NCBI GenBank assembly: GCA_022824865.1
Contig: JAJDZD010000022.1
Coordinates: 36,115 to 100,114 of the forward strand
Length of the DNA: 64,000 nucleotides
Origin: Chloroflexota bacterium
GTDB lineage: Bacteria; Chloroflexota; UBA11872
Reading direction: 5' to 3'
Part shown: piece by piece, positions 3,187 through 64,000 of the stretch
Layout: each line of letters begins with the position of its first letter
How positions within the stretch are numbered: position 1 is the stretch's first letter
Notes under the pieces: model-generated
The model's database searches: none
What the model was told of the DNA's origin: nothing
Seen by the model: only the letters and a program-made list of their open reading frames with translations
Program-made: the position numbers and the translations under genes

Positions 3187-4392
3187 CTACCGCTCGATCA
3201 GCTCGCGCGGCCCGTGCGTCAGCACCTCGCAGCCGTCCTCGGTAATCACGCTCGTCTCGCTGAACGCCACCCCAAACTCCCCCAGCCGCCGCACGGCGAC
3301 CGGGTGGTGAAACACGACTCCTGGCTCCAGCACGCTGTCCGCGTCGCTTCGAATGAAGCCGGAACCGTCGGCCCAGTTCGGCGGGAATCCCGCCCCGATG
3401 CCGTAGCCGAACGTCCCGTGAAACACCAGGTCTTCGCCCGCGGCCTTCAGCTCGCGCCAGCCCGCGTCCGCCGCGTCGCTGGCGGCCACGCCCGGCCCCA
3501 TGGCCTCCAGGACAGCGTTGAGGGCGGCAAGGCACGCGTCGGCGGCCCCGCGAACCTCTGCCGAAGGCGGGCCGATGGTCAGCGTGCGCATCTGCGGCGC
3601 GGTGTAGCGCTGCACGCAGCCGCCGACTTCCAGCAGCACGTTGTCGCCCGACTGGATCGTGTGGCGCTTGTGCGTTGTGTGGAGCATCCCCGAGCGTCGG
3701 CCGCTGGTGACGATGGGCGAGAGGCACGGGTACTCGCTGCCGGCCCGTGCCATGGCTGCGAACGCAGCTCCCGCGACCTCGCCGTCAGATACGCCGGCCG
3801 CCGCGGTGGAGTTCGCGGCTGCCACCGCCGTCTGGGTAGCCACCGCCGCGCTGCGGATGTGCGCGATCTCGGCCGACGACTTGCGCCGCTTCAGCTCGAT
3901 CAGCAGGTCGGTCGCGTCGATGAGTTCCGCCAGCGGCAACGTGTGTGCCAACTCGGCGTAGAACGCTGTCGTCGCACCCCAGACGGCGCCGTCAAGTCCA
4001 ATGCGACCGCGTGTCAAACCGCGCTCGGCCAGGATTTGCGCCGCGTACGCCGGTCGCTCGATCTCCGGCGGGTACCCGTGCAGGTCGTCGAACCAAACGC
4101 CCAGCAGTGCCCCGCCGAACTCCGGCGGATCCATAGCGAGGGCCGGCTCGCCTTCCAGCGGCACCACCAGACACGCGCCGCCATCCACCGCGAATGTCTG
4201 ATATCCGGAGAGATAGAAGACGCTCGCCGGGTTCATTACCACCAGCGCGTCCAGCCCCTGCCCGTCCAGCGCATGTTGCGCCCGCGCCAGCCGTTCCCTG
4301 TACTCGGCCTTAGTGAACGCCGGCTCCGGCTCCAGGCCCGTCAGGCTCGTTTTGGGAAACGGTCCACCGCTCAGGCTGGCATGCACCCGCAT
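3187..4392 (-). CDS. M24-family metallopeptidase (Xaa-Pro aminopeptidase / creatinase-like)
   Basis: It has the creatinase/prolidase N-domain plus the pita-bread catalytic domain (HGTFGYGIGAGFPPNW, LEPGVVF). The likely start is the internal Met (MRVHASL...) at 4392. Confidence 0.7.
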   Translation of the reverse strand: MRVHASLSGGPFPKTSLTGLEPEPAFTKAEYRERLARAQHALDGQGLDALVVMNPASVFYLSGYQTFAVDGGACLVVPLEGEPALAMDPPEFGGALLGVWFDDLHGYPPEIERPAYAAQILAERGLTRGRIGLDGAVWGATTAFYAELAHTLPLAELIDATDLLIELKRRKSSAEIAHIRSAAVATQTAVAAANSTAAAGVSDGEVAGAAFAAMARAGSEYPCLSPIVTSGRRSGMLHTTHKRHTIQSGDNVLLEVGGCVQRYTAPQMRTLTIGPPSAEVRGAADACLAALNAVLEAMGPGVAASDAADAGWRELKAAGEDLVFHGTFGYGIGAGFPPNWADGSGFIRSDADSVLEPGVVFHHPVAVRRLGEFGVAFSETSVITEDGCEVLTHGPRELIER

Positions 4393-4411
4393 CGCTACGT
4401 CCTTCCGTGGG

Positions 4412-5419
4412 CTACCGATACTTGCGCGGTCCCCATTGGGCCTCGTAATAGGGCGCAATCATGCCTCCGGGCGGCGCGACAACGTCTAGCCGCTTGCGGT
4501 CGGCGTCGGTAACCGAAACTTCGAGGGCACCCAGGTTGCCCTTCCAATGCTCCAGGGTCCGCGGTCCAACGATCGGTGCGGTGATTCCGGGCTGCCCCAG
4601 GTTCCAGGCCAAAGCCACCTGACCGGGACTGCATCCCTTCTCGCTGGCGATGGCCGCGACCTCATCTAGCACCGCAAACGCCGCTTCGCTGTGCAGGTTT
4701 CGCTGCTCTTGCGTCTCCGGGTTCTTCTCGAACCGCGTGCCTGGCGGTGCGGCCTTGTCGCGCTGGTAGATTCCGGTCAGAAACCCGCTGGCCAGCGGGG
4801 CCCACGGGATGATGCCGATTCCGTATGTCTGCGCCATCGGTACCAACTCGCGCTCGATCCGCCGATCCAGCAGGTGATACGGCGGCTGCTCGCAGATCGG
4901 CCGGTTGAGACTCAGTTTCTCGGCCACCCACAGCGACTCGACCACCTGCCAGGCCGGCCACGTGCTTGTGCCGATGTAGCGCACCTTCCCGCTCTGCACC
5001 AGGTCATCCAGCGCCCGCAGTGTCTCGTCGGGCGGCACGTCAGGCGACGGACGGTGAATCTGGTACAGGTCGATGTAGTCCGTCTGCAGCCGTCGCAGCG
5101 ACGCCTCGCACTGCTCCAGGATGTGGCGGCGGCTGTTGCCCTGCGCGTTCGGGTCTTCGTCGTCCATCGCGAAGTGGACCTTCGTTGCCAGCACCGCCCG
5201 CCCACGCCGGCTCGGCTCCCGCAGCGCCTCCCCCACTATCGTCTCGCTCGTCCCGCGACCGTACATATTGGCCGTGTCGATAAAGTTGACCCCGGCGTCC
5301 AACGCGTGATCGATGATCGCCAGCGAGTCCTCGCGGCTCGTCGCGTTCCCGAAGTTCCAGCAACCGAGGCACAGGGGACTGACTTTGACGCCAGTGCGAC
5401 CGAGATTTCGGTAGTCCAC
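4412..5419 (-). CDS. aldo/keto reductase
   Basis: Carries LGCWNFG, IDTANMYG and IGTSTW motifs. The GTG start is preceded by AAGGAGG. Confidence 0.85.
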   Translation of the reverse strand: MDYRNLGRTGVKVSPLCLGCWNFGNATSREDSLAIIDHALDAGVNFIDTANMYGRGTSETIVGEALREPSRRGRAVLATKVHFAMDDEDPNAQGNSRRHILEQCEASLRRLQTDYIDLYQIHRPSPDVPPDETLRALDDLVQSGKVRYIGTSTWPAWQVVESLWVAEKLSLNRPICEQPPYHLLDRRIERELVPMAQTYGIGIIPWAPLASGFLTGIYQRDKAAPPGTRFEKNPETQEQRNLHSEAAFAVLDEVAAIASEKGCSPGQVALAWNLGQPGITAPIVGPRTLEHWKGNLGALEVSVTDADRKRLDVVAPPGGMIAPYYEAQWGPRKYR

Positions 5420-5626
5420 CGTGACCTCCTTGCGTCGGTGACGTCTGCCGCAGCCGACGTGAGTGTGTCACGTTGACCGCGGAAACGCAGCTTTCTCGGT
5501 TTGACGCGGCGCCGGGCGCAGTGCGTCCGCGGCCCGGCGCCGTGCAGCGCGTATCCGCCCATCGAAATAGGCGGCCACATCGGCTTCGCTAGACTCCGTT
5601 GGCTTTCCCTCAAGTGGAGGACGCGC

Positions 5627-7027
5627 ATGGCCAGTCGCCCGAACATCCTGTGGATCGTCATGGACTCGCAGCGGCCCCACAACATCGGAGCCTACGGCGA
5701 TCCGAGAGGGGTCACCCCGGTCCTGGACCAGCTGGCGGCTGAGGGCGCTGTCTTCGAGCGCAACATCACCTCCGCGCCGTGGTGCCTACCCTCCCACGCC
5801 TCGATGATGACCGGCCACTACGCCAGCACTCACGGCGCCGACGGCCGGCACGAACGGCTGAGCGAGGAATACCCAACGATCGGCGAGGAGCTGACCGAAC
5901 TCGGCTACGCAACCGTGGGAATCTCCAACAACGCCTACATGAGCGCGTCGTCGGCGTTGCATCGCGGCTTCATGGACTGGAGCTACGTACTGCCGCCGCT
6001 GGGCGCGGCCGACCAGGACAAGGGCGGCGCCCAGGTGGTGCGGCAGATGCTGGACTGGCTGCGGGGGCACGAGGAGGACGAGCGCCCGTTCTTCATGTTC
6101 GTGAACATCAACGACACGCACACGGCGTACATCGCGCCGGAACCCTGGCACTCGCGCTGGGCGCCGGACGTCAGTCGCGAGGAGGCCCGCGAACTCAACC
6201 GGTCGCAAGGCGGTTTCGCCGATCCTTCGCGGATGGACGGGATGCCGGATGACGTGCGGGACAAGCTGTATGCGCTGATGGACGGCGAAGCGGCTTATGT
6301 GGACGACCTGATTGGCCGGGTGGTCAGCTACCTGCGGGATGCCGGGACGCTGGACGACACGATGGTGGTGGTGACGTCGGATCACGGCGACGTGATCGAG
6401 GAGCACCCGCCGTACTGGAACCACCAGTTGACGGTGTTCGAGGCCGTGGCGCACGTGCCGCTGATCGTGCGCTATCCGGCGGCGTTCGAGGCGGAGACCC
6501 GGATCTCGGCGCTTACGCAGACTCATGACGTGGTCGCCACAATTTACGACCTGATCGGGGCCGAGCGGCAGCTCGAGTGGCTGGGCGAGAGCAGCCACAG
6601 CCTGCTGCGCGCCCGCGACGGCGACGCTCGCAGCTATGCGCTGTGCGAGTTCGCGTTTCCCGTGAACATGCTGGAGCGCGTCACGCGCCAGGGCCGGGCC
6701 TTTGAGCTACGCCGCTTCTTCCGGGCGCAGCGGGCCTACTACCGCGACGAGTGGAAATACATCTGGACCAGCGACGGCCGCGACATGCTGTACAACCTGG
6801 CGGATGACCCGACCGAACAGGTAAACCTGTTTGAGAGCGAGAACGACCGGGCTCGGAAGTACTACCTGGAGCTGGAAGCCGTGCTGGGTCGCATCCCGGT
6901 GAACGATTACGGCGACTGGATGGTGACCGAGTACATGAAGGGCACGCCGAAGGAGAGCTGGGAGAAGATCCGGCGCTGGGGCTACCTACGACCGGGTCAG
7001 GCCGACAAGCCGGCGTTCCGCAACTAG
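5627..7027 (+). CDS. sulfatase-like hydrolase (alkaline phosphatase superfamily) with a divergent active-site motif
   Basis: NILWIVMDSQRP...APWCLPSHASMMTGHY...DTHTAY. GGAGGA lies 5 nt upstream of ATG 5627. The upstream in-frame part of the ORF (5501-5626) is Arg-rich. Confidence 0.8.
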   Translation: MASRPNILWIVMDSQRPHNIGAYGDPRGVTPVLDQLAAEGAVFERNITSAPWCLPSHASMMTGHYASTHGADGRHERLSEEYPTIGEELTELGYATVGISNNAYMSASSALHRGFMDWSYVLPPLGAADQDKGGAQVVRQMLDWLRGHEEDERPFFMFVNINDTHTAYIAPEPWHSRWAPDVSREEARELNRSQGGFADPSRMDGMPDDVRDKLYALMDGEAAYVDDLIGRVVSYLRDAGTLDDTMVVVTSDHGDVIEEHPPYWNHQLTVFEAVAHVPLIVRYPAAFEAETRISALTQTHDVVATIYDLIGAERQLEWLGESSHSLLRARDGDARSYALCEFAFPVNMLERVTRQGRAFELRRFFRAQRAYYRDEWKYIWTSDGRDMLYNLADDPTEQVNLFESENDRARKYYLELEAVLGRIPVNDYGDWMVTEYMKGTPKESWEKIRRWGYLRPGQADKPAFRN

Positions 7028-7050
7028 GTCAACCGTCGGCGGCTCGTCGG

Positions 7051-7950
7051 TCAGGGCGCCCGGGCCTCCATGATCCAGGCGTGGCGGATGTCGAGAGGCA
7101 TCCGCAGACCGTCGTGGACGGCGTGGCGGCGAAGGAGACGTTCGCGGTCGTAGTCGAAGCGTTCGATCCTGGGCTGGAGCCGGCCGTTCGCTTCGGTGAT
7201 CGTGAGGAACGAGGGACGGTTGTCGTTGACTGAGAGATCCGGGTCGTCCACGCGCCGGTCGATCTCCCGTCCGCTCGGGTCTCGGTAGCGGAACAGCGGC
7301 GCCGCGACCGTACCCGGGTTGGCCAGCGCCCCGTCGGCGCCCTGGCTGATGAAGGGATAGTGGGTGTGCCCGATCACGGTCAGATCCACGGCGGGATCGG
7401 CAAAGATCTCCGACAGCTCGGCGGGCCGAAGCCGCCAGTTGGTGGTCTCCGGCGTACGCAGATTGAAGTGGCCATGCATGAGGCGCAGGGAGTGGCCCCG
7501 CCAGCGCACATCCAGGATGTCGGGCAGGCACTTCACGAACTCCAGCTGGTCGGGCGTCATCTCACGGTAAGCCCCGAGTTCGGTGTCGTCGGGCGCGCCT
7601 TCGCCTGAAGGCGGCTCGGCCTTGAGGTACTCGAAGATTGCGCTGTCGTGGTTGCCGCGGGTCGTGCGCCCGGCAGCGCGGCGCATCGTCCATTCGAGCG
7701 TGAAGCAGCCGTCGATCCCGCCTTCGAATATGTCGCCGTTGACAAAGACGAGATAGGGCTCGGCCAGCTGGTCGAGCCAGCGGTCCAGGGCGTCCAGCGG
7801 CTCCTTGTAGCCATGCAGGTCGCTCACGATCACCAGGCGCTGGATTGAAGGATTGACTTCGACCTGGGCGGTCAATCTGCCAGCGGTAGGCGCGGACGCG
7901 CCCACGTCCGGGGCGCTGGCGTTGGTGCATCTAGAGAGCATCTGGGTCAT
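7051..7950 (-). CDS. metallophosphoesterase (calcineurin-like phosphoesterase)
   Basis: Carries VSDLHG, GDIFEGG, GNHD and GHTHYP motifs. Confidence 0.75.
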   Translation of the reverse strand: MTQMLSRCTNASAPDVGASAPTAGRLTAQVEVNPSIQRLVIVSDLHGYKEPLDALDRWLDQLAEPYLVFVNGDIFEGGIDGCFTLEWTMRRAAGRTTRGNHDSAIFEYLKAEPPSGEGAPDDTELGAYREMTPDQLEFVKCLPDILDVRWRGHSLRLMHGHFNLRTPETTNWRLRPAELSEIFADPAVDLTVIGHTHYPFISQGADGALANPGTVAAPLFRYRDPSGREIDRRVDDPDLSVNDNRPSFLTITEANGRLQPRIERFDYDRERLLRRHAVHDGLRMPLDIRHAWIMEARAP

Positions 7951-8131
7951 TCACTTGCGATGACACGGACAGGCTACGTCGCCGGTGTGCGTTGTGGCAC
8001 CGGACTGCACCTCCCGCACCATGAGGTCCCAAGTGTCGATCCGCGCTGGCCAAGAGCATCTGAATGTGCCTATCCAGTAGGCTAAACGTTCGAGAACGTC
8101 CGACGCCCTCACGTTTCCAGGAGCCGCCGCC

Positions 8132-9487
8132 ATGACCATGACAATGAGCGCCCCACCGACGGCCGCCGAAATTGCCGAACTCAACCGGGAATACACGTTC
8201 TTCGACTGGGCGGCGCAGGGAGCGGTGAATCCGGTGGCGGTGGAGCGCGCCGAGGGGTCGTACCTGTATGACCACGACGGGCGACGGTTCCTGGATCTGA
8301 ACGCCCAGTTGATGAATGTCAACATCGGGCACCAGCACCCGGCGGTGGTGGCGGCCATCAAGGCGCAGGCCGACAAACTGTGCTACGTGAATCCGCGCTT
8401 CGCTTCGCAGCCGCGCGGCGAATTGGGCCGCGAGTTGGCCGAGATCACGCCGGGATCGCTGTGCAAGAGCTTCTTCACGCTGGGCGGCGCGGAGGCGACG
8501 GACCATGCGGTGAAGATCGCGCGTCTGGCGACGGGGCGGCAGAAGATCATTGCGCGACGCCGCTCGTACCACGGGTCCACCTATGGGGCACTCACGCTGA
8601 CGGGCGAGGCGCGGCGCTGGGCCACCGAGCCGGGCATTCCCGGCATTGTGCGGGCCGCCGACCCCTACCAGTACCGCTGCCGGTTTTGTTCGGGGCAAGC
8701 GCAGTGCGACCTGCGTTGCGCCGACGACATCGACGAGGTGCTTCGGGTAGAAGGACCGGACAATGTGGCGGCTGTGATCGTGGAACCGATCGCCGGGGCC
8801 AATGGCGTGGTGGTTCCGCCGGACGGGTATCTGCCGCGCGTGCGCGAAATCTGCGACGAGTACGGTGTGCTGCTGATCGCCGACGAAGTGATGACCGGCT
8901 TCGGGCGCACCGGCCGCTGGTTCGCCGTGGAGCACTGGGGCGTGGAGCCCGACATCATGACCATTTCGAAGGGTCTGACGTCGGGAACGGTCCCCCTGGG
9001 CGCGGTGGTTGTCACGGACGAAATCGCTCATCACTTTGAGGACAACCCCTTGTGGGCCGGGCTGACCTACGGCGCGCACACGCTGGCGTGCGCGGCGGCG
9101 CTGGCCACGATTCAGGCCTACCGCGACGAGGGAATCCCGGAACGCGTGGTCGAAATGGGCGAGCTGCTCAAGGACGAATATGCGGACATGTCGGCTCGCC
9201 ACCCGAGCATTGGCGAGGCGCGCAGCCTGGGCCTGTTCTCGGCGCTGGAACTGGTGCGCAACCGGGAAACCCGCGAGCCGCTGGTGCCGCAGATCGATCC
9301 GGCGTTCGAGAACTACGGCGTCATGAAGGAGATGTTCGCCTACATGCTGCAGCGGGGCGTGGTGACGATGACGCGCTGGAACTGGCTGATGGTGAACCCG
9401 CCGCTCACCATCACGGCGGAGGAACTGCGCGAAGGCTTGGCCGTTGTGGACGAGGCGCTGGACCTGGCCGACCAGGCCATGGTCTGA
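8132..9487 (+). CDS. class III (omega) aminotransferase, PLP-dependent
   Basis: Carries SYHGSTYG and IADEVMTGFGRTGRWFA with the downstream Lys, and is about 450 aa long. Confidence 0.85.
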   Translation: MTMTMSAPPTAAEIAELNREYTFFDWAAQGAVNPVAVERAEGSYLYDHDGRRFLDLNAQLMNVNIGHQHPAVVAAIKAQADKLCYVNPRFASQPRGELGRELAEITPGSLCKSFFTLGGAEATDHAVKIARLATGRQKIIARRRSYHGSTYGALTLTGEARRWATEPGIPGIVRAADPYQYRCRFCSGQAQCDLRCADDIDEVLRVEGPDNVAAVIVEPIAGANGVVVPPDGYLPRVREICDEYGVLLIADEVMTGFGRTGRWFAVEHWGVEPDIMTISKGLTSGTVPLGAVVVTDEIAHHFEDNPLWAGLTYGAHTLACAAALATIQAYRDEGIPERVVEMGELLKDEYADMSARHPSIGEARSLGLFSALELVRNRETREPLVPQIDPAFENYGVMKEMFAYMLQRGVVTMTRWNWLMVNPPLTITAEELREGLAVVDEALDLADQAMV

Positions 9488-9540
9488 GGGGCTGCGGAAC
9501 GGGCGTCGAATCGCGGCGAAAACGGCGCTCTCGCGCGAAT

Positions 9541-9568
9541 AAGAGTTTTTTCCAAACGCGATTATCCC
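9541..9568. repeat. left terminal inverted repeat of the IS1595-like element
   Basis: Reverse-complement match to 11818-11845 (2 mismatches in 28). A weaker match continues about 16 bp inward. Confidence 0.55.
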
Positions 9569-9627
9569 TTCTTGACAAGTACGGCCGAAAGCCTTAAAAT
9601 GGTGGCATCAATCGAGAGGAACCGCCG

Positions 9628-10494
9628 ATGCCGCAGACGTACACCTTGCTCGACTTTATGCGCGACTATCCAGACGACGAAACCTGCCTCGACAAGATTC
9701 TTGAACTGCGCTACGGCACTGACCCGGTTTGCGAATCCTGCGAACGCGAGACGACCTATCACCGCATCAAGAAACGGCGCGGCTATGCCTGCCAATGGTG
9801 CGGGTCACACGTCTTTCCCTGCGCAGGGACACCGTTTGCGAAGTCACGAACACCGCTGACGAAGTGGTTCTATGCGATGTATCTCTTTACGACAACCCGG
9901 CATGGCGTACCTGCAAAGGAACTTGAACGGCAGCTAGGCGTGACCTACAAGACGGCTTGGCGCATGGGTCACATCATTCGAGACCTTATGTCGAATATCG
10001 ATATCGGGATGCTGGTTGGCGAAGTCGAAGTTGATGAATCCTACGTCGGCGGTCACCGCCCCGGCACAACCGGACGCGGCGCACAAGGCAAGACCATCGT
10101 GCTCGGTATGAAGCAACGCGGCGGGAACATGCGCGCGATGGTGATACCTGACGTAAAAGGCGCGACGATTGAACCGCTGATTCAACAACACGTCGCACGC
10201 GGTACAACCGTGCATACCGACGAATGGTGGGCATATCGGTACTTACACTGGCTCGGCTACGATCATCGCACGGTTCGGCACGGCAGAGGGCAGTACGTCA
10301 AAGACGGCAGTCACACGAATAGCATTGAAAACTTCTGGGCACGGCTGAAGCTATCGATTCGTGGGACGCACATTCATGTTTCCCGACAATACCTGCCGAA
10401 GTATCTGACCGAGTTTAGTTTTCGTTACAACTATCGGAACATGCCTGATCGGATGTTCGCGGTTTTGATGGCAACCTTGGCACAGCCTGTTTAA
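9628..10494 (+). CDS. IS1595-family (ISXO2-like) DDE transposase
   Basis: The N-terminal zinc ribbon (CESCERETTYHRI...CQWCG) plus an ISXO2-like DDE domain (VHTDEWWAYRY...) are typical of IS1595 transposases. Confidence 0.85.
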   Translation: MPQTYTLLDFMRDYPDDETCLDKILELRYGTDPVCESCERETTYHRIKKRRGYACQWCGSHVFPCAGTPFAKSRTPLTKWFYAMYLFTTTRHGVPAKELERQLGVTYKTAWRMGHIIRDLMSNIDIGMLVGEVEVDESYVGGHRPGTTGRGAQGKTIVLGMKQRGGNMRAMVIPDVKGATIEPLIQQHVARGTTVHTDEWWAYRYLHWLGYDHRTVRHGRGQYVKDGSHTNSIENFWARLKLSIRGTHIHVSRQYLPKYLTEFSFRYNYRNMPDRMFAVLMATLAQPV

Positions 10495-10684
10495 GCAAGG
10501 CGTCGAACAATGCTTTGTTACCGGGTTGCTTCGGTTTGGGTTTCGACTTTCTGCCTTCAGTTTTCTTCTTATTCATAAGACACCCCTATTTCTTGTGCAT
10601 AAAGCGAGTAGCCCAATTTGCACTTACATTCCGTTGCAGCATAATGCTATAATTAATCATATCATATCAATGGGAAGCTATAGC

Positions 10685-10807
10685 ATGAAAAACAATTCTC
10701 GCAAAACAGTAGAACCTCTCGACACTCAGTCATTTATGCTAATGATGGGCACATCTTTATTCGCAGTTACCTTTATGACTATTCTCGTTCTTTTTGCGGC
10801 AGGCTAA
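10685..10807 (+). CDS. small hydrophobic peptide (40 aa) in the AT-rich cargo, hypothetical
   Basis: MKNNSRKTVEPLDTQSFMLMMGTSLFAVTFMTILVLFAAG has a single TM. A sigma70-like TTGCAC-16-CATAAT sits about 50 nt upstream. GC content is about 40%. Confidence 0.2.
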   Translation: MKNNSRKTVEPLDTQSFMLMMGTSLFAVTFMTILVLFAAG

Positions 10808-10821
10808 GCAATTTACTTAAC

Positions 10822-11181
10822 TCACTTAGCCGTGTCTATGACAGACTTTACAACTGTCGATAGTATTCCTGTCAGCGCTGTAATCAGGGAAAGCATCGGC
10901 GCAACGATAAGAGCTATTAGTCCAAGTGCCTCTTGTCCGCGAGTCTTCGCAATCAGATAGCCGGTTACTACAGCACTAAATGCCGCGAAGAATAGCACCC
11001 AAACAAGAAAGGTAAATAGGACGAAAGCTTGGTTAAGATTCAATTTGCTTATTTCTGGGCCGATCATACTTCCCAGGGTAAGTGCGACAGTTACAGCTAC
11101 AAGTATCGCAATCCCAGTTGCGACAATTTTCCAAGGGATTTCTGGTAGTGGTTTAGGGTCGTCTTGAGTCTGATCGGCCAA
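10822..11181 (-). CDS. hypothetical integral membrane protein (~4 TM) in the AT-rich cargo
   Basis: 119 aa with hydrophobic helices separated by charged loops. AT-rich codon usage differs from the host. Confidence 0.4.
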   Translation of the reverse strand: MADQTQDDPKPLPEIPWKIVATGIAILVAVTVALTLGSMIGPEISKLNLNQAFVLFTFLVWVLFFAAFSAVVTGYLIAKTRGQEALGLIALIVAPMLSLITALTGILSTVVKSVIDTAK

Positions 11182-11432
11182 TTCGCAGCCTCCGTCGCTG
11201 TTTGTGCTTATACCGTACAGAATCCTAACACAACCGTTCTGGACACGGTACCGCCCGGCCAGCTAGGGTCACTGCGACTCGCCACAGTCACCCTACGCGC
11301 TAGCGCAATCGCGCGGTTTGGCGTCTGCGCTCCCCCGCGTATCGTCTAGCGCGTATTGACTTGTGGCGAGTCTGACACCTAGCCGCGCGACGGGGGAGCA
11401 CCTGTATCGCGCTTGCGATTCGGAGCGCCACT

Positions 11433-11750
11433 ATGAATCGCCGGACTGTTGCCGCTGCGGTCACCGCCCTGGCCCTTGCTGCCTGCGTCAAGGTCAGCGA
11501 CACGTCAACCGGGATCGAACACCTGCCGCCGGAGTTCAGCGTCGAAACCACGATCTATACGCAGGGCAGCGCGCGGTTGCCGCTGCCGTGCTTCGCGTCC
11601 CTGACGATTGACGCGGCAGGCGGGGAGACCATCATCAACTACGTCGAAATCACTGAACCTGCGTCCTACACGGTTCCGATCAGTGTGGACGGTCAGCTAG
11701 TCACCGAGTTCAATACGCAAGGGTGTCAGCCATGGACACTTGAACCGTAG
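11433..11750 (+). CDS. putative lipoprotein
   Basis: MNRRTVAAAVTALALAACVK is a signal peptide with a lipobox (LAAC). The protein is 105 aa. Confidence 0.45.
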   Translation: MNRRTVAAAVTALALAACVKVSDTSTGIEHLPPEFSVETTIYTQGSARLPLPCFASLTIDAAGGETIINYVEITEPASYTVPISVDGQLVTEFNTQGCQPWTLEP

Positions 11751-11817
11751 CGGTTCGGGCGGGATTGACGGCTGCGCAGGCGGCAAGATCAGCGGATTCT
11801 ATCGTACTTGTCGTCAG

Positions 11818-11845
11818 GGGATAATCGCGTTTCCAAAAAACTCTT
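11818..11845. repeat. right terminal inverted repeat of the IS1595-like element
   Basis: Reverse-complement match to 9541-9568. Confidence 0.55.
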
Positions 11846-12196
11846 GAGGCGCGGCGGGGTGCATTTTGGCGGGTCCGAGGCGCGCCGAGGATTGCGGCTG
11901 AAGACGACGAAACGGCGGGGCCACCGTGGAACGGCGCGTCCTGGCGAGGGGACGGAGGCGCGGTTCAGCGGGCGCGGCAGCGGACATTCGAGAACTCGGT
12001 TACGAAGACATCAGGCAGATTGTACACTGATGGCACACGACAGGCAAGCACCGCTCGTTTCGTGAACCGGCGAGGGATCACGAGAGCGCGGCGGGGGCTG
12101 GCCCGCACCGACACGCACATGCTCGGGTCGCCGTCCCGCTGTGAGGCGGGCAGACGATGAGCCGGGCTATTTCACCTGTTAGGGAGTGCCGCGCCT

Positions 12197-13066
12197 CTAG
12201 CCGACGAGGGCTTTCTCCTTCTCGATCTGCTCGTGTTCCTCGAGCCAGACCTTGAGGGGCACGTCGGCGTCGGAGGGTGAGGAGCGTCCGAATTCGTTGG
12301 TAGAGTGGCCCATCATCTGCTTGAGGATGGGGTGCGACTCGTCGTACCACTCCTGCGGGTATTCCATGTCGTCGCGGGTGCGAATCCAGCGATAGCCGTA
12401 GCCGTAGAACAGCACCCGGCGAGTCACGTCGGAGAAGTTTGGCGTGGCGGCGTGCCAGATGCGGCGGTCGAAGATGACGGCCGTGCCGGCCTTGACCTTG
12501 ACGGGGATGGCACCTTCGGGCTGGACGTCGCCTTCGCCGGGCTCGGGGAGGGTGTTGGAGAGCTGACTGCCCGGGACGACCCAGAAGTTGCCCATGCCTT
12601 CGTTGCTGACGTCGGTGAGGAAGTAGCCGACCTTGAGTGAAATGCGCGGGCGCGGGCTGGTTTCCATGTCCCGGTTCATCTGGCCGGAGTCCTGGTGCCA
12701 GCCCCAGGCGCGCTCGGACGGATCGTAGGTTCCTGGTTCCCTGCCAGTGACGGCCAGATGGGTGTGGTAGAGGTAGACGTTCCAGCCGAGGATGCCCCAG
12801 ACCTTGGGCAGCAGGCGCTCGTAGGCGACCATGTCGAAGAACGAGCGGTCAAGATGCACGAAGCCCAGCTTGTTGATGCGCTGGGTGATGGTCTTGTCGG
12901 TGCGCCCGCCTTCCAGGACGCCACTTTCGTAAAGGTCGTCGATGGTCTCAATCAGGGACTCGCGCAGGTCCTCGGGAACAGCGTCTTCGACGACCAGGAA
13001 GCCGTCGCGCTCGAACGATTCGCGCTCGTCGTCGGTCAGGGCGTATTGGAGACAACTGGGATCCAT
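12197..13066 (-). CDS. phytanoyl-CoA dioxygenase (PhyH) family Fe(II)/2-oxoglutarate oxygenase
   Basis: Carries the WHQDSG (HxD) ... IWHAATPN (His) facial triad. GAGGA lies 6 nt upstream of ATG 13066. The longer ORF to 13129 has a poor N-terminus. Confidence 0.8.
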   Translation of the reverse strand: MDPSCLQYALTDDERESFERDGFLVVEDAVPEDLRESLIETIDDLYESGVLEGGRTDKTITQRINKLGFVHLDRSFFDMVAYERLLPKVWGILGWNVYLYHTHLAVTGREPGTYDPSERAWGWHQDSGQMNRDMETSPRPRISLKVGYFLTDVSNEGMGNFWVVPGSQLSNTLPEPGEGDVQPEGAIPVKVKAGTAVIFDRRIWHAATPNFSDVTRRVLFYGYGYRWIRTRDDMEYPQEWYDESHPILKQMMGHSTNEFGRSSPSDADVPLKVWLEEHEQIEKEKALVG

Positions 13067-26923: not shown

Positions 26924-27091
26924 ACCCGAGAGGATCTGGAGATCCCTTCTAGCAATCGCTACGTCGCCATCATTGAGGCGATCTTCGGCTCCAAGCACGT
27001 TGCCGGTGATCGCGCGGTTAACTTCGAGCGTGAGGACATCATCGATGTCGCGGCAAGGCTTGGCATCGATCTGCCTAGAAATCTAGGCGAC

Positions 27092-27739
27092 TTGATCTAC
27101 AGCTTCCGCTACAGGATGAATCTTCCGCGCAGCATTCTGGATGCCGCGCCGAGCGGGGAAACCTGGATCATCAGACCCGCAGGACGGGGAAAGTATCGTT
27201 TCGTTCTGGTAAGCGACATTCCGCTGACGCCGAATCCAAACCTTGCCGTCACCAAGATTCCCGACTCCACGCCAGGGATCATTGCCAAGTACGCGTTCAG
27301 TGATGAACAGGCTTTGCTGGCCCGCGTTCGCTATAACAGGTTGGTCGACGTGTTTCTCGGCGTTGCCTGCTATTCGCTTCAGAATCACTTACGCACGACC
27401 GCGCCTGAGATGGGACAGGTCGAAACTGACGAGATCTACATCGGGGTGGACAAGCGGGGCGCTCACTATGCGGTTCCCGTCCAGGCCAAAGGCGGATCGG
27501 ACAGACTCAGCAGAGTCCAGATTGAGCAGGACTTCGCTGTATGTGAATCCAAGCTTCCTTCGCTGATCTGTCGGCCAGTTGGTGCGCAGTTCCTGGTGGA
27601 CGATGTGATTGCGCTCTTCGAACTCGAGCAGGTCGGCGACGACATTCGCATCGCCGCCGAGAAGCACTATCGACTGGTACCGCCGGATGCGGTGACCGAT
27701 GAGGATTTGGGCAGGTATCGACAGCGGCTCGCGGAATAA
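27092..27739 (+). CDS. putative type II restriction endonuclease (PD-(D/E)XK-like), possibly longer at the N-terminus
   Basis: TDEIYIGVD...VPVQAKGG resembles a PD...(D/E)xK core. The annotated start is TTG at 27092. The reading frame is open back to the MTase TGA (26921-26923) with protein-like sequence. Confidence 0.45.
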   Translation: MIYSFRYRMNLPRSILDAAPSGETWIIRPAGRGKYRFVLVSDIPLTPNPNLAVTKIPDSTPGIIAKYAFSDEQALLARVRYNRLVDVFLGVACYSLQNHLRTTAPEMGQVETDEIYIGVDKRGAHYAVPVQAKGGSDRLSRVQIEQDFAVCESKLPSLICRPVGAQFLVDDVIALFELEQVGDDIRIAAEKHYRLVPPDAVTDEDLGRYRQRLAE

Positions 27740-61556: not shown

Positions 61557-63748
61557 CAACGGGCACACCCACCACGCTTCCGTATCGGGTACGCGGCGGC
61601 AACGAGCCGGGCAGCTTCGCAGTCACCTTTCACCCGGCCGACGGACCGAGCGTCAGTGGTCCCGACTTGCTCCTCACCGCCGGCGCTGTTGGCACCTGGG
61701 AGTTGCGATTAACGGTTGAGGCGCCGGTGGCCGCGGGCGGCGGCTTCTTCTTCGAGCGCTATGGGTTCCTGCTGTCGCACAGCATCCAGGACACCCGTCC
61801 GCGCGGCCGCGACTTCGTCACCCTGCGGGCCAGGACGGATGCCCGCGTACGCCTGGAACTCAACGAGCTCAATCAGGCCAACTCGCCGCCAATCGCTCGC
61901 ATCGTCGTCGAACACGGAACCCTGGTCCCAGGCGACCAGCTATGCCTGGTGGTCGGCGACACCAGCCGCGGCGGTCCCGGCAGCGAGGTCTACGACGTCG
62001 CCTGCCAGGGCCGCATCGTCCTCTCGGTTGACCGCAGCGGCAGCCTCGCCTATCGCCAACTAAGAGACGGCGAGATTCGCATTCACGTTCAGTCGGACCC
62101 CCAACCAACGCTCCTGCGCCTGCTGGGACCCTCCATCGCCCAACCCGGCGAACCGTTCGCCCTGCACCTCACCGCCTACGACCGCAACCACAACGTCTGC
62201 ACGCAGTACGCCGGAGCGGTGGCGCTGCGCGACGAGACGGCGTTGCTAACCGGCCTCCCCAGCCACATCCAATTCGGACCTGAGAACGCGGGACTCGCCA
62301 TCATCGAGGGCGTCAACGCCCAGGCGCCCGGCCTGATCCGCGTCAAAGCACACGACCGCGAGCACGGGCTCTCCACGCTCAGCAACCCGATCCTCGTCCA
62401 GTCCAATCCCGAGTCGCTCCTGCTCTGGGGCGACCTGCACTCCCACAGCTGGGGCGACGTCAGCATGGGCCTGATGGACGATCCCACGCCGATCCTGCAT
62501 CCCTCGGGTCGCCACGCCCAGGCCCGCGGTCAGGCCCGTCTCGACTTCGCCGCCCCCGGCCCCATGGCGCCACCCGACCAAACGCACCGACCCGCCGTCT
62601 GGGAAGCCCATCAGGCCGCCTACCGCGCCAACGACGAGCCGGGAACTTACGTCCCGTACCTGGCCGCGGAAGCCCACCCCGGCGTCGGCGGCGATCGCAA
62701 CGTCATCTTTCGCGACTGGGAGGAGCGACACGCGCCAGCCTGGGCCGACATGGACGACCTACTTGAGACTTACGGCGACCGCCAGGATGTCCTCCTGGAA
62801 GCCCACGTCGGCGGCGGCCCGGCCGACTGGGAGGCCTATCCGACCACGCACGAGCCTGTGGTCGAAGTCGCCAGCGGCCACGGATCCGCCGAGTGGCTGT
62901 TGCAACGCGCGCTCCATCACGGCCACCGCCCCGCGGTCATCGCCTCCGGCGACACCCACCTGCCCCTGCTCGCCGCGCCCATGGCCGCCCACCTCTTTCG
63001 CGGACGCTTCGGCAGCCACTTGAACATCCGCGACTGCGCCATCGGCTGCGGCCCCGTGGCCGCCGTCCGCGCCCCCCGCTGCGAGCGCCACGCCATCTGG
63101 GACGCGGTGATGAGCCGCCGCACCTACGCCACAACCGGCGCTCGCATCATCCTGGACGTGCAGGCCAACGGCCGCCCGGCCGGCAGCGAGATTGAGACTG
63201 AAGACAAGCCCCGCCTGACCATCACCGCGCACGCCTGCGGACCAATCGAGCGGATCGACCTGATCCGCGATGACCGCACCCTGGCGGCCTGGCGCCCGAA
63301 AGCCCTGGACGCGACGCTCGACTTTGAAGATTCGTCCCCGCTTCCAGAGGCCGCCTACTACGTCCGCGTGCGCCAGTTCGATGGCGAGTACGCCTGGAGC
63401 ACTCCCATTTGGATTTCCTGCAGCGTCGGCGGCTCCGGTGCCGACGCCGACCTGCCCGCCTGGAACCAGCACGATCCCGTCGACCTGGCCGCCATCCGTC
63501 CCAACGACGCCGAGCCCTATGAGGACCATCTGCTCGATTACCTGGCTGCCAACGAGAATCTGGACCTCTTCCACGACCTCACGCCTATCCACATCGTCAA
63601 CGAGGTCCCCGGACGCGCCGCCCTCTTCTACGCCTTCCTGGGCAAATCGCGGGAGCCCATCTCGATTCGCTGGTACTTCGACTTCCCCATGCCCCGTTTG
63701 CGCCTTGACTGGGGGTGGCGCGACTTCGGAACCAGGGACGGCGGCTGA
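61553..63748 (+). CDS. DUF3604-like hypothetical protein (GDLHSHS metal-binding motif)
   Basis: 731 aa. The GTG start overlaps the upstream stop (GTGA). LLLWGDLHSHSWGD suggests a PHP/amidohydrolase-like metal site. Confidence 0.55.
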   Translation: MTTGTPTTLPYRVRGGNEPGSFAVTFHPADGPSVSGPDLLLTAGAVGTWELRLTVEAPVAAGGGFFFERYGFLLSHSIQDTRPRGRDFVTLRARTDARVRLELNELNQANSPPIARIVVEHGTLVPGDQLCLVVGDTSRGGPGSEVYDVACQGRIVLSVDRSGSLAYRQLRDGEIRIHVQSDPQPTLLRLLGPSIAQPGEPFALHLTAYDRNHNVCTQYAGAVALRDETALLTGLPSHIQFGPENAGLAIIEGVNAQAPGLIRVKAHDREHGLSTLSNPILVQSNPESLLLWGDLHSHSWGDVSMGLMDDPTPILHPSGRHAQARGQARLDFAAPGPMAPPDQTHRPAVWEAHQAAYRANDEPGTYVPYLAAEAHPGVGGDRNVIFRDWEERHAPAWADMDDLLETYGDRQDVLLEAHVGGGPADWEAYPTTHEPVVEVASGHGSAEWLLQRALHHGHRPAVIASGDTHLPLLAAPMAAHLFRGRFGSHLNIRDCAIGCGPVAAVRAPRCERHAIWDAVMSRRTYATTGARIILDVQANGRPAGSEIETEDKPRLTITAHACGPIERIDLIRDDRTLAAWRPKALDATLDFEDSSPLPEAAYYVRVRQFDGEYAWSTPIWISCSVGGSGADADLPAWNQHDPVDLAAIRPNDAEPYEDHLLDYLAANENLDLFHDLTPIHIVNEVPGRAALFYAFLGKSREPISIRWYFDFPMPRLRLDWGWRDFGTRDGG

Positions 63749-63855
63749 ATCACGAAATCGATCAACCAAGTGAACCTTCGGCGGCTGTTCAAGCTGCCCA
63801 ACAGCGGTCCCGGTGGCCTATATTCACTCAGGATTCTCGGGCGGAAAGGTAAAGC

Positions 63856-64000
63856 ATGAAACGTCTGGTTCTAGCGATCGTTGGTGTCGTCTCACTCCTT
63901 GGAATCACCGCCGCGGCGGCGTTGGCTGATTGGCCGACCACCTGCGTTGAACTCAACGACCTCATTGAAGCCGGACGCGGCAACGATCAAAACGTTGGTA
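63856..64000 (+). CDS. secreted hypothetical protein (5' partial, runs off the window)
   Basis: MKRLVLAIVGVVSLLGITAAAALA is a signal peptide. GGAAAGG lies upstream. Confidence 0.4.
   Translation, partial: MKRLVLAIVGVVSLLGITAAAALADWPTTCVELNDLIEAGRGNDQNVG

Follow-up and report, generated by a model that had tools for sequence, protein, structure and literature searches.

An AT-rich passenger segment in an IS1595-family transporter insertion sequence of a GC-rich Chloroflexota genome

What might explain some 700 nucleotides of AT-rich DNA, with reading frames for small membrane proteins, in the GC-rich genome of a Chloroflexota bacterium? In the window (the whole stretch of 64,000 nucleotides that was analysed), positions 10495–11200 have a GC content of 43.8%, compared with 66.3% for the window itself. 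Stretches of 706 nt outside the insertion sequence described below have a mean GC content of 66.9% (SD 2.6, minimum 56.4), which places the segment at z = −8.8; it also contains the 500-nt bin with the lowest value in the 64 kb (42.6% GC), and the 100-nt minima of 35–36% fall at 10601–10750. An earlier note on this DNA, made from the letters and their open reading frames, had put the segment at about 40% GC in a context of about 68%; the deep dip is real, although the figures are nearer 44% and 66–67%. The note also took the segment to be foreign, which agrees with a third-position GC of 0.40 in its 119-aa gene against 0.86 in the neighbouring host genes, and compared its small hydrophobic peptide and convergent partner with toxin/holin-like or type I toxin–antitoxin (TA)-like arrangements. 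Absent from that description was the surrounding context: a transposase gene ends at 10494, one base ahead of the segment. The AT-rich segment is the passenger region inside an IS1595-family transposon, and not a free-standing island.

Ends, transposase and target of the insertion sequence

An IS1595-family transporter insertion sequence (IS) spans positions 9557–11829 (2,273 bp) and encloses the AT-rich segment. Its ends, its transposase gene and the repeat into which it is inserted are as follows.

9488–9548: left half of the target repeat, a GC-rich 'B' flank plus AAGAGTTT
9549–9556: left copy of the target-site duplication, TTTCCAAA, identical to 11830–11837
9557–9583, plus strand: left terminal inverted repeat, CGCGATTATCCCTTCTTGACAAGTACG
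9572–9600, plus strand: candidate transposase promoter TTGACA-17-TAAAAT, matching 11 of 12 consensus positions, with the −35 element within the left repeat
9628–10494, plus strand: IS1595-family DDE transposase of 288 aa, assigned with Pfam and NCBIfam
11803–11829, minus strand: right terminal inverted repeat, from the inverted-end comparison
11830–11837: right copy of the target-site duplication, TTTCCAAA
11838–11900: right half of the target repeat, AAACTCTT plus the GC-rich 'A' flank GAGGCGCGGCGGGGTGCATTTTGGC

The transposase matches the Pfam profile DDE_Tnp_IS1595 (PF12762) at 7.4e-46 with full profile coverage (1–153 of 153) and the NCBIfam model transpos_IS1595 (NF033547) at 2e-64, possesses an N-terminal zinc ribbon (Zn_ribbon_IS1595, PF12760, 6e-7), and has 6,491 homologues at E ≤ 1e-60. 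The two 27-nt ends of the IS pair at 23 of 27 positions. More distant relatives terminate in CGCGATTATCCC, GGCAATTATCCC or CGCATGTATCCC, and a perfect 8-bp duplication accompanies each of these at targets that are unrelated. The window element shares the terminus CGCGATTATCCC with the distant relatives L044, L006, L023 and L027, the last two with transposase identities of 41–48%. Perfect 8-bp duplications were found around the relatives L002, L004, L005, L033, L036, L040, L044, L023 and L006, and A/T-rich duplications of this length are typical of the IS1595 family (PMC12561309). An alternative model, in which the IS would end at AAGAG (9541/11845) with no duplication and with two types of flank that apparently flip relative to the transposase, was rejected. 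The CC/GG repeat "mismatch" of that model is an 8-bp direct repeat in every relative, and the termini of the distant elements and the empty site in L044 place the true ends at CGCGATTATCCC. When the flanking target palindrome is included, the inverted repeats reach approximately 9541–9583 and 11803–11845, and the flanks appear to flip because the target, being palindromic, can receive the IS in either orientation.

The target repeat in the window is intergenic and lies between convergent host genes for an aminotransferase and a PhyH dioxygenase. Its left flank motif is found beside every close relative, and its right flank matches that of L005, from another genome, at 23 of 25 nt. All of the close relatives are inserted in the sequence AAGAGTTT–TTTNNAAA–AAACTCTT, with recurring GC-rich flanks and in both orientations. 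An uninterrupted target palindrome with the same flanks and one copy of the 8-mer is present in L044 (approximately 985–1052), between convergent genes; the palindrome has no copy in the viral contigs. The reconstructed empty site of the window is predicted to form a long hairpin (−60.6 kcal/mol) with the AT-rich 8-mer at its tip. Judged from these insertion sites, members of the subclade home to the tip of a palindromic repeat that is conserved and lies between genes. There is one copy of the IS in the 64-kb window, and related ISs occupy three separate loci in a single genome (L002, L003 and L004) and different loci in other genomes. No empty allele of the window locus was recovered, a search via the neighbouring aminotransferase having returned the same strain only. 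With a single copy in the window and no empty-site strain found, the mobility of this particular copy is something that we infer.

A conserved backbone around an exchangeable slot

What does the element carry, and is its cargo shared by its relatives? Passenger genes lie between the inverted repeats at 10577–11750: the 119-aa gene, a 105-aa lipoprotein ORF and possibly a 40-aa ORF. About ten related elements, from Chloroflexota MAGs and metagenome assemblies and with transposase identities of 74% to over 90%, were compared (L002–L005, L014 and L031–L037); the closest are in Chloroflexota MAGs. The parts of the window element that enter this comparison, apart from those already listed, are the following.

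10415–10576, minus strand: conserved small ORF of 53 aa with a basic N-terminus, the motif ALFDALLKQA and an AGGGG ribosome-binding site 6 nt upstream
10577–11205: AT-rich exchangeable cargo slot, 629 nt, 43.4% GC
11264–11424, plus strand: GC-rich structured block with a long hairpin (GACTCGCCACA / TGTGGCGAGTC), whose inner stem varies, plus a second one
11433–11750, plus strand: predicted lipoprotein of 105 aa with a signal peptide ending in LAAC, the second variable passenger ORF

The relatives share with the window element its ends, both left and right, the transposase region as far as 10513, the small ORF on the minus strand and a block at approximately 11206–11441. The stretch from about 10513 to 11206 is the sole part of the element without DNA similarity to the relatives. 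At this position the genes of the relatives are unrelated and lie almost without exception on the minus strand; they encode N6/N4 methyltransferase–HNH fusions, zinc-ribbon-like proteins, small membrane proteins and orphans. L003 and L004, which are located in the same genome, have unrelated slots within backbones that are 95% identical on the left and 90% on the right. The GC content of the slot is 42–51% in all eight members measured, compared with 55–57% for the transposase, 60–70% for the block and 63–71% for the hosts. Because the backbone is conserved while the slot holds unrelated and always AT-rich genes, the slot can be regarded as an exchangeable cargo position, and the AT-rich segment is very likely cargo of the IS. 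The fuller explanation, that it is an exchangeable passenger cassette of an intact IS1595-family transporter IS inserted at the tip of a palindrome, we hold with good confidence.

The 53-aa ORF of the backbone converges on the transposase gene and overlaps its 3′ end. It is kept in all close relatives, the distant ones retain the motif F..L(L/V)..A, and it has no match to a Pfam family. In the window no cargo gene abuts this small ORF upstream, unlike in the relatives. The structured block comprises roughly 160 nt directly upstream of the 105-aa ORF and is found by nhmmer in the close subclade only (E values of 1e-43 to 1e-55). Its minimum free energy has z-scores of −4.7 to −7 in six of seven members, with the plus strand more stable in all seven; the block was also analysed by alifold, and a search of Rfam over 9300–12300 gave no match at E ≤ 1. 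RNA-guided targeting, in which the block would pair with the target in the manner of a bridge RNA, was considered and rejected, as the block is GC-rich and, on informal comparison, contains no complement of the AT-rich target. The 105-aa ORF is itself GC-rich. Its start, ATGAATCGC, is common to L003 and L004, other relatives have an unrelated ORF of 86–109 aa at its position, and its product is not on record by exact look-up.

Genes of the window cassette and their possible roles

Within the slot of the window, four features need to be considered.

10640–10664: AT-rich near-palindrome containing CATAAT, the extended −10 element TGCTATAAT on the plus strand and a weaker extended −10, TGATATGAT, on the minus strand
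10685–10807, plus strand: 40-aa ORF with a polar N-terminus and a predicted C-terminal transmembrane (TM) segment (residues 16–40)
10802–10831: inverted repeat GGCTAAG...CTTAGCC, 7 bp with a 16-nt loop, spanning both stop codons
10822–11181, minus strand: cargo gene for a 119-aa three-helix membrane protein, starting at TTG, with GGAGG at 11189–11193 as its ribosome-binding site

The 119-aa ORF is very likely a real gene. The GGAGG site is 7 nt upstream of the TTG start, the length of the ORF is beyond chance (P = 0.004, dinucleotide shuffles), and its GC content at the three codon positions (0.57/0.41/0.40) is coding-like, with the first position above the second and third. It is, as had been noted before, a membrane-protein ORF convergent with the 40-aa ORF; in place of the four TM helices then proposed, there are three hydrophobic segments or helices (residues 17–46, 49–81 and 85–118), and the AF2 model has three long helices with modest confidence (pLDDT 67.5). 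Two relatives, P0135 (1.6e-7) and P0136 (1.6e-5), emerged when 1.84 billion representatives were searched exhaustively with phmmer. A third is present in L031, in the same slot and orientation and with the same junction motif of a related IS, and is 51% identical over 55 aa; it contains one in-frame stop, in a 4× long-read contig. The family has the motif GY..A...LG(L/M)IAL(V/I)(V/I)AP, and its protein identity of 33–51% over 55–97 aa exceeds the similarity of the DNA, which is limited to a single 46-nt match. P0135 and P0136 start with lipoprotein-type signal peptides and are encoded outside ISs (loci L038 and L039); with two of the three relatives not in an IS, the family is not IS-specific. 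The 119-aa product is absent from the records as a called gene by exact look-up and has no match in a word-indexed homology search. Searches of the window cargo ORFs against Pfam, NCBIfam, PADLOC and PHROGs gave sub-threshold noise only, and the PADLOC defence models matched neither the window ORFs nor six of the relatives' cargo ORFs at E ≤ 0.1. The matches that Foldseek gave for the model in the PDB were all generic or designed helical bundles (E > 1), a PDB sequence profile search was empty, and 2.9 million viral contigs yielded no relative. The protein belongs to a very rare, unnamed membrane-protein family, of which four members were found among about 1.8 billion representatives.

The evidence for the 40-aa ORF is of a different kind and begins with the DNA in front of it. 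The promoter-like TTGCAC-16-CATAAT described in the earlier note is present (TTGCAC at 10618–10623 and CATAAT at 10640–10645), and a consensus scan gives the overlapping TTTGCA-17-CATAAT with 9 of 12 matches. A better candidate, which overlaps CATAAT, is the plus-strand extended −10 element TGCTATAAT at 10645–10653. All of these promoters are consensus matches, and matches of this kind are in any event enriched in the AT-rich DNA, at 7 compared with 1.8 ± 1.5 in shuffles. The near-palindrome as a whole may be a bidirectional promoter. Positions 10641–10662 match L031 at 7589–7610 in 20 of 22 nt, amid DNA that is otherwise unalignable, with a score of 32 against a maximum of 29 in 300 shuffles. 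In L031 the same element precedes a 48-aa ORF (7651–7797), called as a gene, that also has a polar N-terminus and a C-terminal TM segment and that converges on the homologue of the 119-aa gene. The two small ORFs have no similarity by BLASTP, no such peptide ORF is found beside the 119-aa homologues in L038 and L039, and neither homology search nor tblastn against all fetched loci produced a homologue of the 40/45-aa ORF. The homology searches proposed in the earlier note were thus productive for the 119-aa protein, with three relatives, and not for the 40-aa peptide; that note had made its reading depend on conservation of one or other ORF in related elements, and it is the 119-aa ORF that is conserved, the 40-aa ORF not being so at the level of sequence. 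When 10577–10830 (254 nt) is shuffled with its dinucleotides preserved, a complete ORF with an ATG start and 40 aa or more appears in 21% of cases, so the length of the 40-aa ORF alone is not beyond chance (P = 0.055 for the longer stop-free run). The GC content of its codon positions is flat, with no coding signature, and hydrophobic ORFs arise readily in T-rich DNA. On balance we lean against its translation. A convergent transcript is likely to start from the TGCTATAAT promoter, as judged from the conserved element, and a peptide product from that transcript is possible. The description of the two ORFs as antisense does not hold for the ORFs, which are convergent and do not overlap; with 14 nt between their stop codons, it would apply at most to the transcripts. 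A terminator scan between the two ORFs reported nothing.

How might the cassette work? The IS would have inserted, with its 8-bp duplication, into the AT-rich tip of the palindromic intergenic repeat, bringing a backbone of inverted ends, transposase, small convergent ORF, structured block of about 160 nt and downstream secreted-protein ORF. The 119-aa gene would be read leftwards from a −10-like TATAAG (11212–11207) at the edge of the conserved block, and its product would insert in the membrane. The rightward TGCTATAAT promoter would produce a short convergent transcript, with or without a 40-aa tail-anchored peptide. As there is no terminator between the ORFs, this transcript would extend, as antisense RNA, over the 3′ end of the mRNA for the 119-aa protein and could thereby modulate that mRNA. 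The leftward face of the AT-rich palindrome may drive the conserved small ORF. The cassette could then be viewed as a self-contained accessory membrane module that travels with the IS, and the mosaic structure of the elements suggests that recombination within the flanking conserved sequence swaps cassettes between copies of the IS.

A more ambitious view would make the subclade a miniature site-specific cassette platform, with AT-rich cassettes from a foreign gene pool passing in and out of a fixed backbone that includes the small antisense ORF and a structured leader RNA, and would make the window cassette, consisting of the 119-aa protein and a convergent peptide or antisense RNA, a toxin–antidote or exclusion device that rewards retention of the IS; we consider this rather unlikely. 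A reading along the lines of the earlier note's type I TA-like idea would make the 40-aa peptide a membrane toxin, with the extended −10 as its promoter, that is restrained by the 119-aa gene, either through antisense overlap or through an immunity protein, and the pair would stabilise the IS. Type I TA loci with convergent, 3′-overlapping transcripts include fst/RNAII, txpA/ratA and bsrG/SR4, and the window cassette resembles such loci in having a small hydrophobic ORF with a candidate promoter, a convergent second unit, a minimal spacer and a mobile element as its location. It is consistent with a toxin and its antidote that in both the window and L031 a small ORF with a C-terminal TM segment has a conserved extended −10 upstream and converges on a gene of the 119-aa family, that no terminator separates the two ORFs across their 14 nt, and that selfish-looking genes (the methyltransferase–HNH fusions) occur in other cassettes of the element family. 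However, the partner in the window encodes a 119-aa protein and not a small RNA, and no such peptide is encoded beside the homologues of this protein in L038 and L039. The 40-aa ORF itself lacks a homologue, is dissimilar to the 48-aa ORF of L031, and has neither a length beyond chance nor a codon-position signal. Its polar N-terminus and C-terminal TM segment are the opposite of the layout of most type I toxins, among them Hok, Fst, TxpA and Ldr, and no TA, holin or defence family was matched in Pfam, NCBIfam, PADLOC or PHROGs. Such a module is decidedly unlikely, and a TA or holin reading of the cassette is weakly supported. As the anomaly of composition is accounted for by transporter-IS cargo, no special toxin story is needed.

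Could the slot instead be decaying filler, with the 119-aa ORF a leftover of an older cassette? In the relatives, cargo genes are packed up to the small conserved ORF, whereas in the window there is a gap of 245 nt (10577–10821) with no minus-strand ORF, which would then be degraded coding sequence. The window slot is also among the shortest of the eight, only that of L033 (559 nt) being shorter, and the in-frame stop in the L031 homologue points in the same direction. But tblastx found no degraded remnant of the relatives' cargo in the gap, and the gap contains the conserved promoter element. Furthermore, nothing interrupts the 119-aa ORF, which has a good ribosome-binding site and a length beyond chance, and its family is conserved as protein above the similarity of the DNA. 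We regard decay as very unlikely. A holin-like lysis or phage-derived module, suggested solely by the resemblance of a small multi-TM protein and an adjacent TM peptide to a holin/antiholin pair, is extremely improbable, given the lack of any PHROG or Pfam holin match, the lack of an endolysin or any other phage gene in the element, the lack of a relative in the viral contigs, and the lipoprotein-type signal peptides on two of the homologues, which are unlike holins.

Comparison with other mobile elements

With its DDE transposase bearing an N-terminal zinc ribbon, short inverted repeats, 8-bp A/T-rich duplication and internal passenger genes, the element has the characteristics of an IS1595 transporter IS. 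Transporter ISs with passenger genes are established for the IS1595 family (Siguier, Gagnevin and Chandler 2009, as cited in PMC3129680, PMC8496243 and a TnCentral preprint), and the window element, a transporter IS with orphan cargo, belongs to a class that has already been described. It differs in its site-specific insertion into one palindromic repeat and in its fixed backbone, with an antisense small ORF and a structured block, around a swapped slot. In a limited literature search, which excluded Siguier et al. 2009, homing, a fixed backbone with a swappable AT-rich slot, the antisense ORF and the structured block were not found described for IS1595. The element family provides an example of very small transposons that transport orphan genes, and exchange them, among GC-rich genomes. 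It has three side features: insertion that homes strictly to a repeat of palindromic form, a conserved small ORF that is antisense to the transposase gene where that gene ends, and a structured block that is RNA-like and has no annotation.

The choice of target is reminiscent of the REP-targeting ISs (ISPpu9, ISPpu10, ISPa11, ISPsy8 and ISRm19/22), which are selective for a repeated extragenic palindrome (Tobes and Pareja 2006, PMC1525189). Like the subclade described here, they insert into a palindrome with high selectivity and in either orientation. The best studied of them, ISPpu9, ISPpu10 and ISPa11, belong to the IS110 family, have a DEDD transposase and make no target duplication. Here, by contrast, the enzyme is a DDE transposase of the IS1595 family, and an ordinary duplication of 8 bp is left where the element inserts, at the AT-rich apex of the palindrome.

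The exchange of cargo brings to mind the integrons, in which a fixed platform likewise exchanges, at one position, unrelated, often orphan and compositionally foreign genes. Integrons depend on the tyrosine recombinase IntI, an attI site and cassettes that end in attC. The window element has no integrase and no readily recognisable attC, and the only recombinase in or beside it is the DDE transposase. Its conserved hairpin block is located in the backbone and not in each cassette. The boundaries of exchange coincide with the conserved backbone, which points to homologous rather than site-specific recombination.

Target palindrome and insertion-site flanks

Where does this subclade of insertion sequences (IS) insert? 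All of the close relatives of the IS1595-family IS in the window occupy a single conserved palindrome, AAGAGTTT-TTTNNAAA-AAACTCTT, whose halves surround the window IS.

9488-9556 and 11830-11900: palindromic target halves around the window IS

The GC-rich flanks of this palindrome recur among the close relatives, with the IS inserted in either orientation, and a copy without interruption lies between convergent genes in L044 (985-1052), a further locus carrying a relative. The use of one palindrome by all close relatives, together with the uninterrupted L044 copy, shows that the IS subclade homes in on the tip of an intergenic hairpin that recurs as a repeat. In the flanks of about 100 nt on each side of the IS in L002-L005, L036, L040 and the window, several independent loci show C-richness on a single strand that extends for >100 nt to either side of the insertion site. 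In the light of this one-strand C-richness, the repeated target may belong to a longer intergenic element with strand asymmetry.

A structured block and a second variable slot

Between the AT-rich cassette and the lipoprotein gene lies a conserved GC-rich block, and comparison of the window IS with its relatives identifies the position 3' of this block as a second variable slot.

11264-11424, plus strand: conserved GC-rich block, predicted to fold into a long hairpin and then a second hairpin
11433-11750, plus strand: 105-aa predicted lipoprotein, the second-slot occupant in the window
L037 1966-2226, L033 1794-2123 and L003 7901-8509: second-slot ORFs of relatives

The outer stem of the long hairpin (GACTCGCCACA/TGTGGCGAGTC, 11-12 bp) is invariant; the inner stem varies in sequence between subgroups with pairing kept. 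The minimum free energy z-score of the block is -4.7 to -7 in six of seven members, the plus strand gives the more stable fold in every member, and there is no Rfam match. The loop contains GCUCCCCCG, which is complementary to CGGGGGAGC downstream, and the two could pair as a pseudoknot. We regard the block as a candidate structured leader RNA.

The second slot of L003 and L004 encodes a 202-aa Pro/Thr-rich secreted protein, which has only its start, ATGAATCGC, in common with the window lipoprotein. In L014, L031, L033 and L037 the slot encodes a conserved protein of 86-109 aa (PVNVCxRVEIHAGW...GYRVVWI...), which has a hydrophobic segment at its C-terminus and matches no Pfam family.

The AT-rich cassette and its boundaries

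A small ORF, convergent with the transposase gene, overlaps its 3' end, and other features belong to the cassette itself or to the cargo of relatives.

10415-10576, minus strand: small ORF at the transposase 3' end
10802-10831: 7-bp inverted repeat GGCTAAG/CTTAGCC, within which each of the two convergent ORFs has its stop codon
L003 5936-7288 and L005 5927-7162, both minus strand: cargo, fused N6/N4 DNA methyltransferase-HNH endonuclease

The small ORF is kept throughout the clade, down to relatives with 50-60% transposase identity, and encodes the motif F..L(L/V)..A preceded by a basic or extended N-terminus. It matches no Pfam family, and its product may be a transposition regulator. In relatives, the stop of the last cargo gene abuts or overlaps the small-ORF start. 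The inverted repeat is ruled out as a canonical terminator because it lacks a T-run.

The 119-aa membrane-protein gene of the cassette is absent from the record as a called gene because the public assembly contig stops at 11175: the short-read Logan SRR16351687 contig (L001/L045) belongs to the same organism, matches window 3628-11175 at 100% identity and ends there, within the cassette. Around the L031 element the inverted repeat reaches 175 nt (5777-5951 and 8794-8968), with MutS-domain genes symmetric on both sides, an arrangement that may be a fold-back artefact of a 4x long-read contig; the L031 ORFs, and with them the in-frame stop of the 119-aa homologue, therefore call for caution.

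A 117-aa membrane ORF precedes the methyltransferase-HNH fusion in L003, and the L038 homologue of the 119-aa protein, which lies outside any IS, adjoins an N6_N4 methyltransferase. Lesser GC dips occur elsewhere in the window, at 27001-27500 (57.4%) and 63501-64000 (59.2%).
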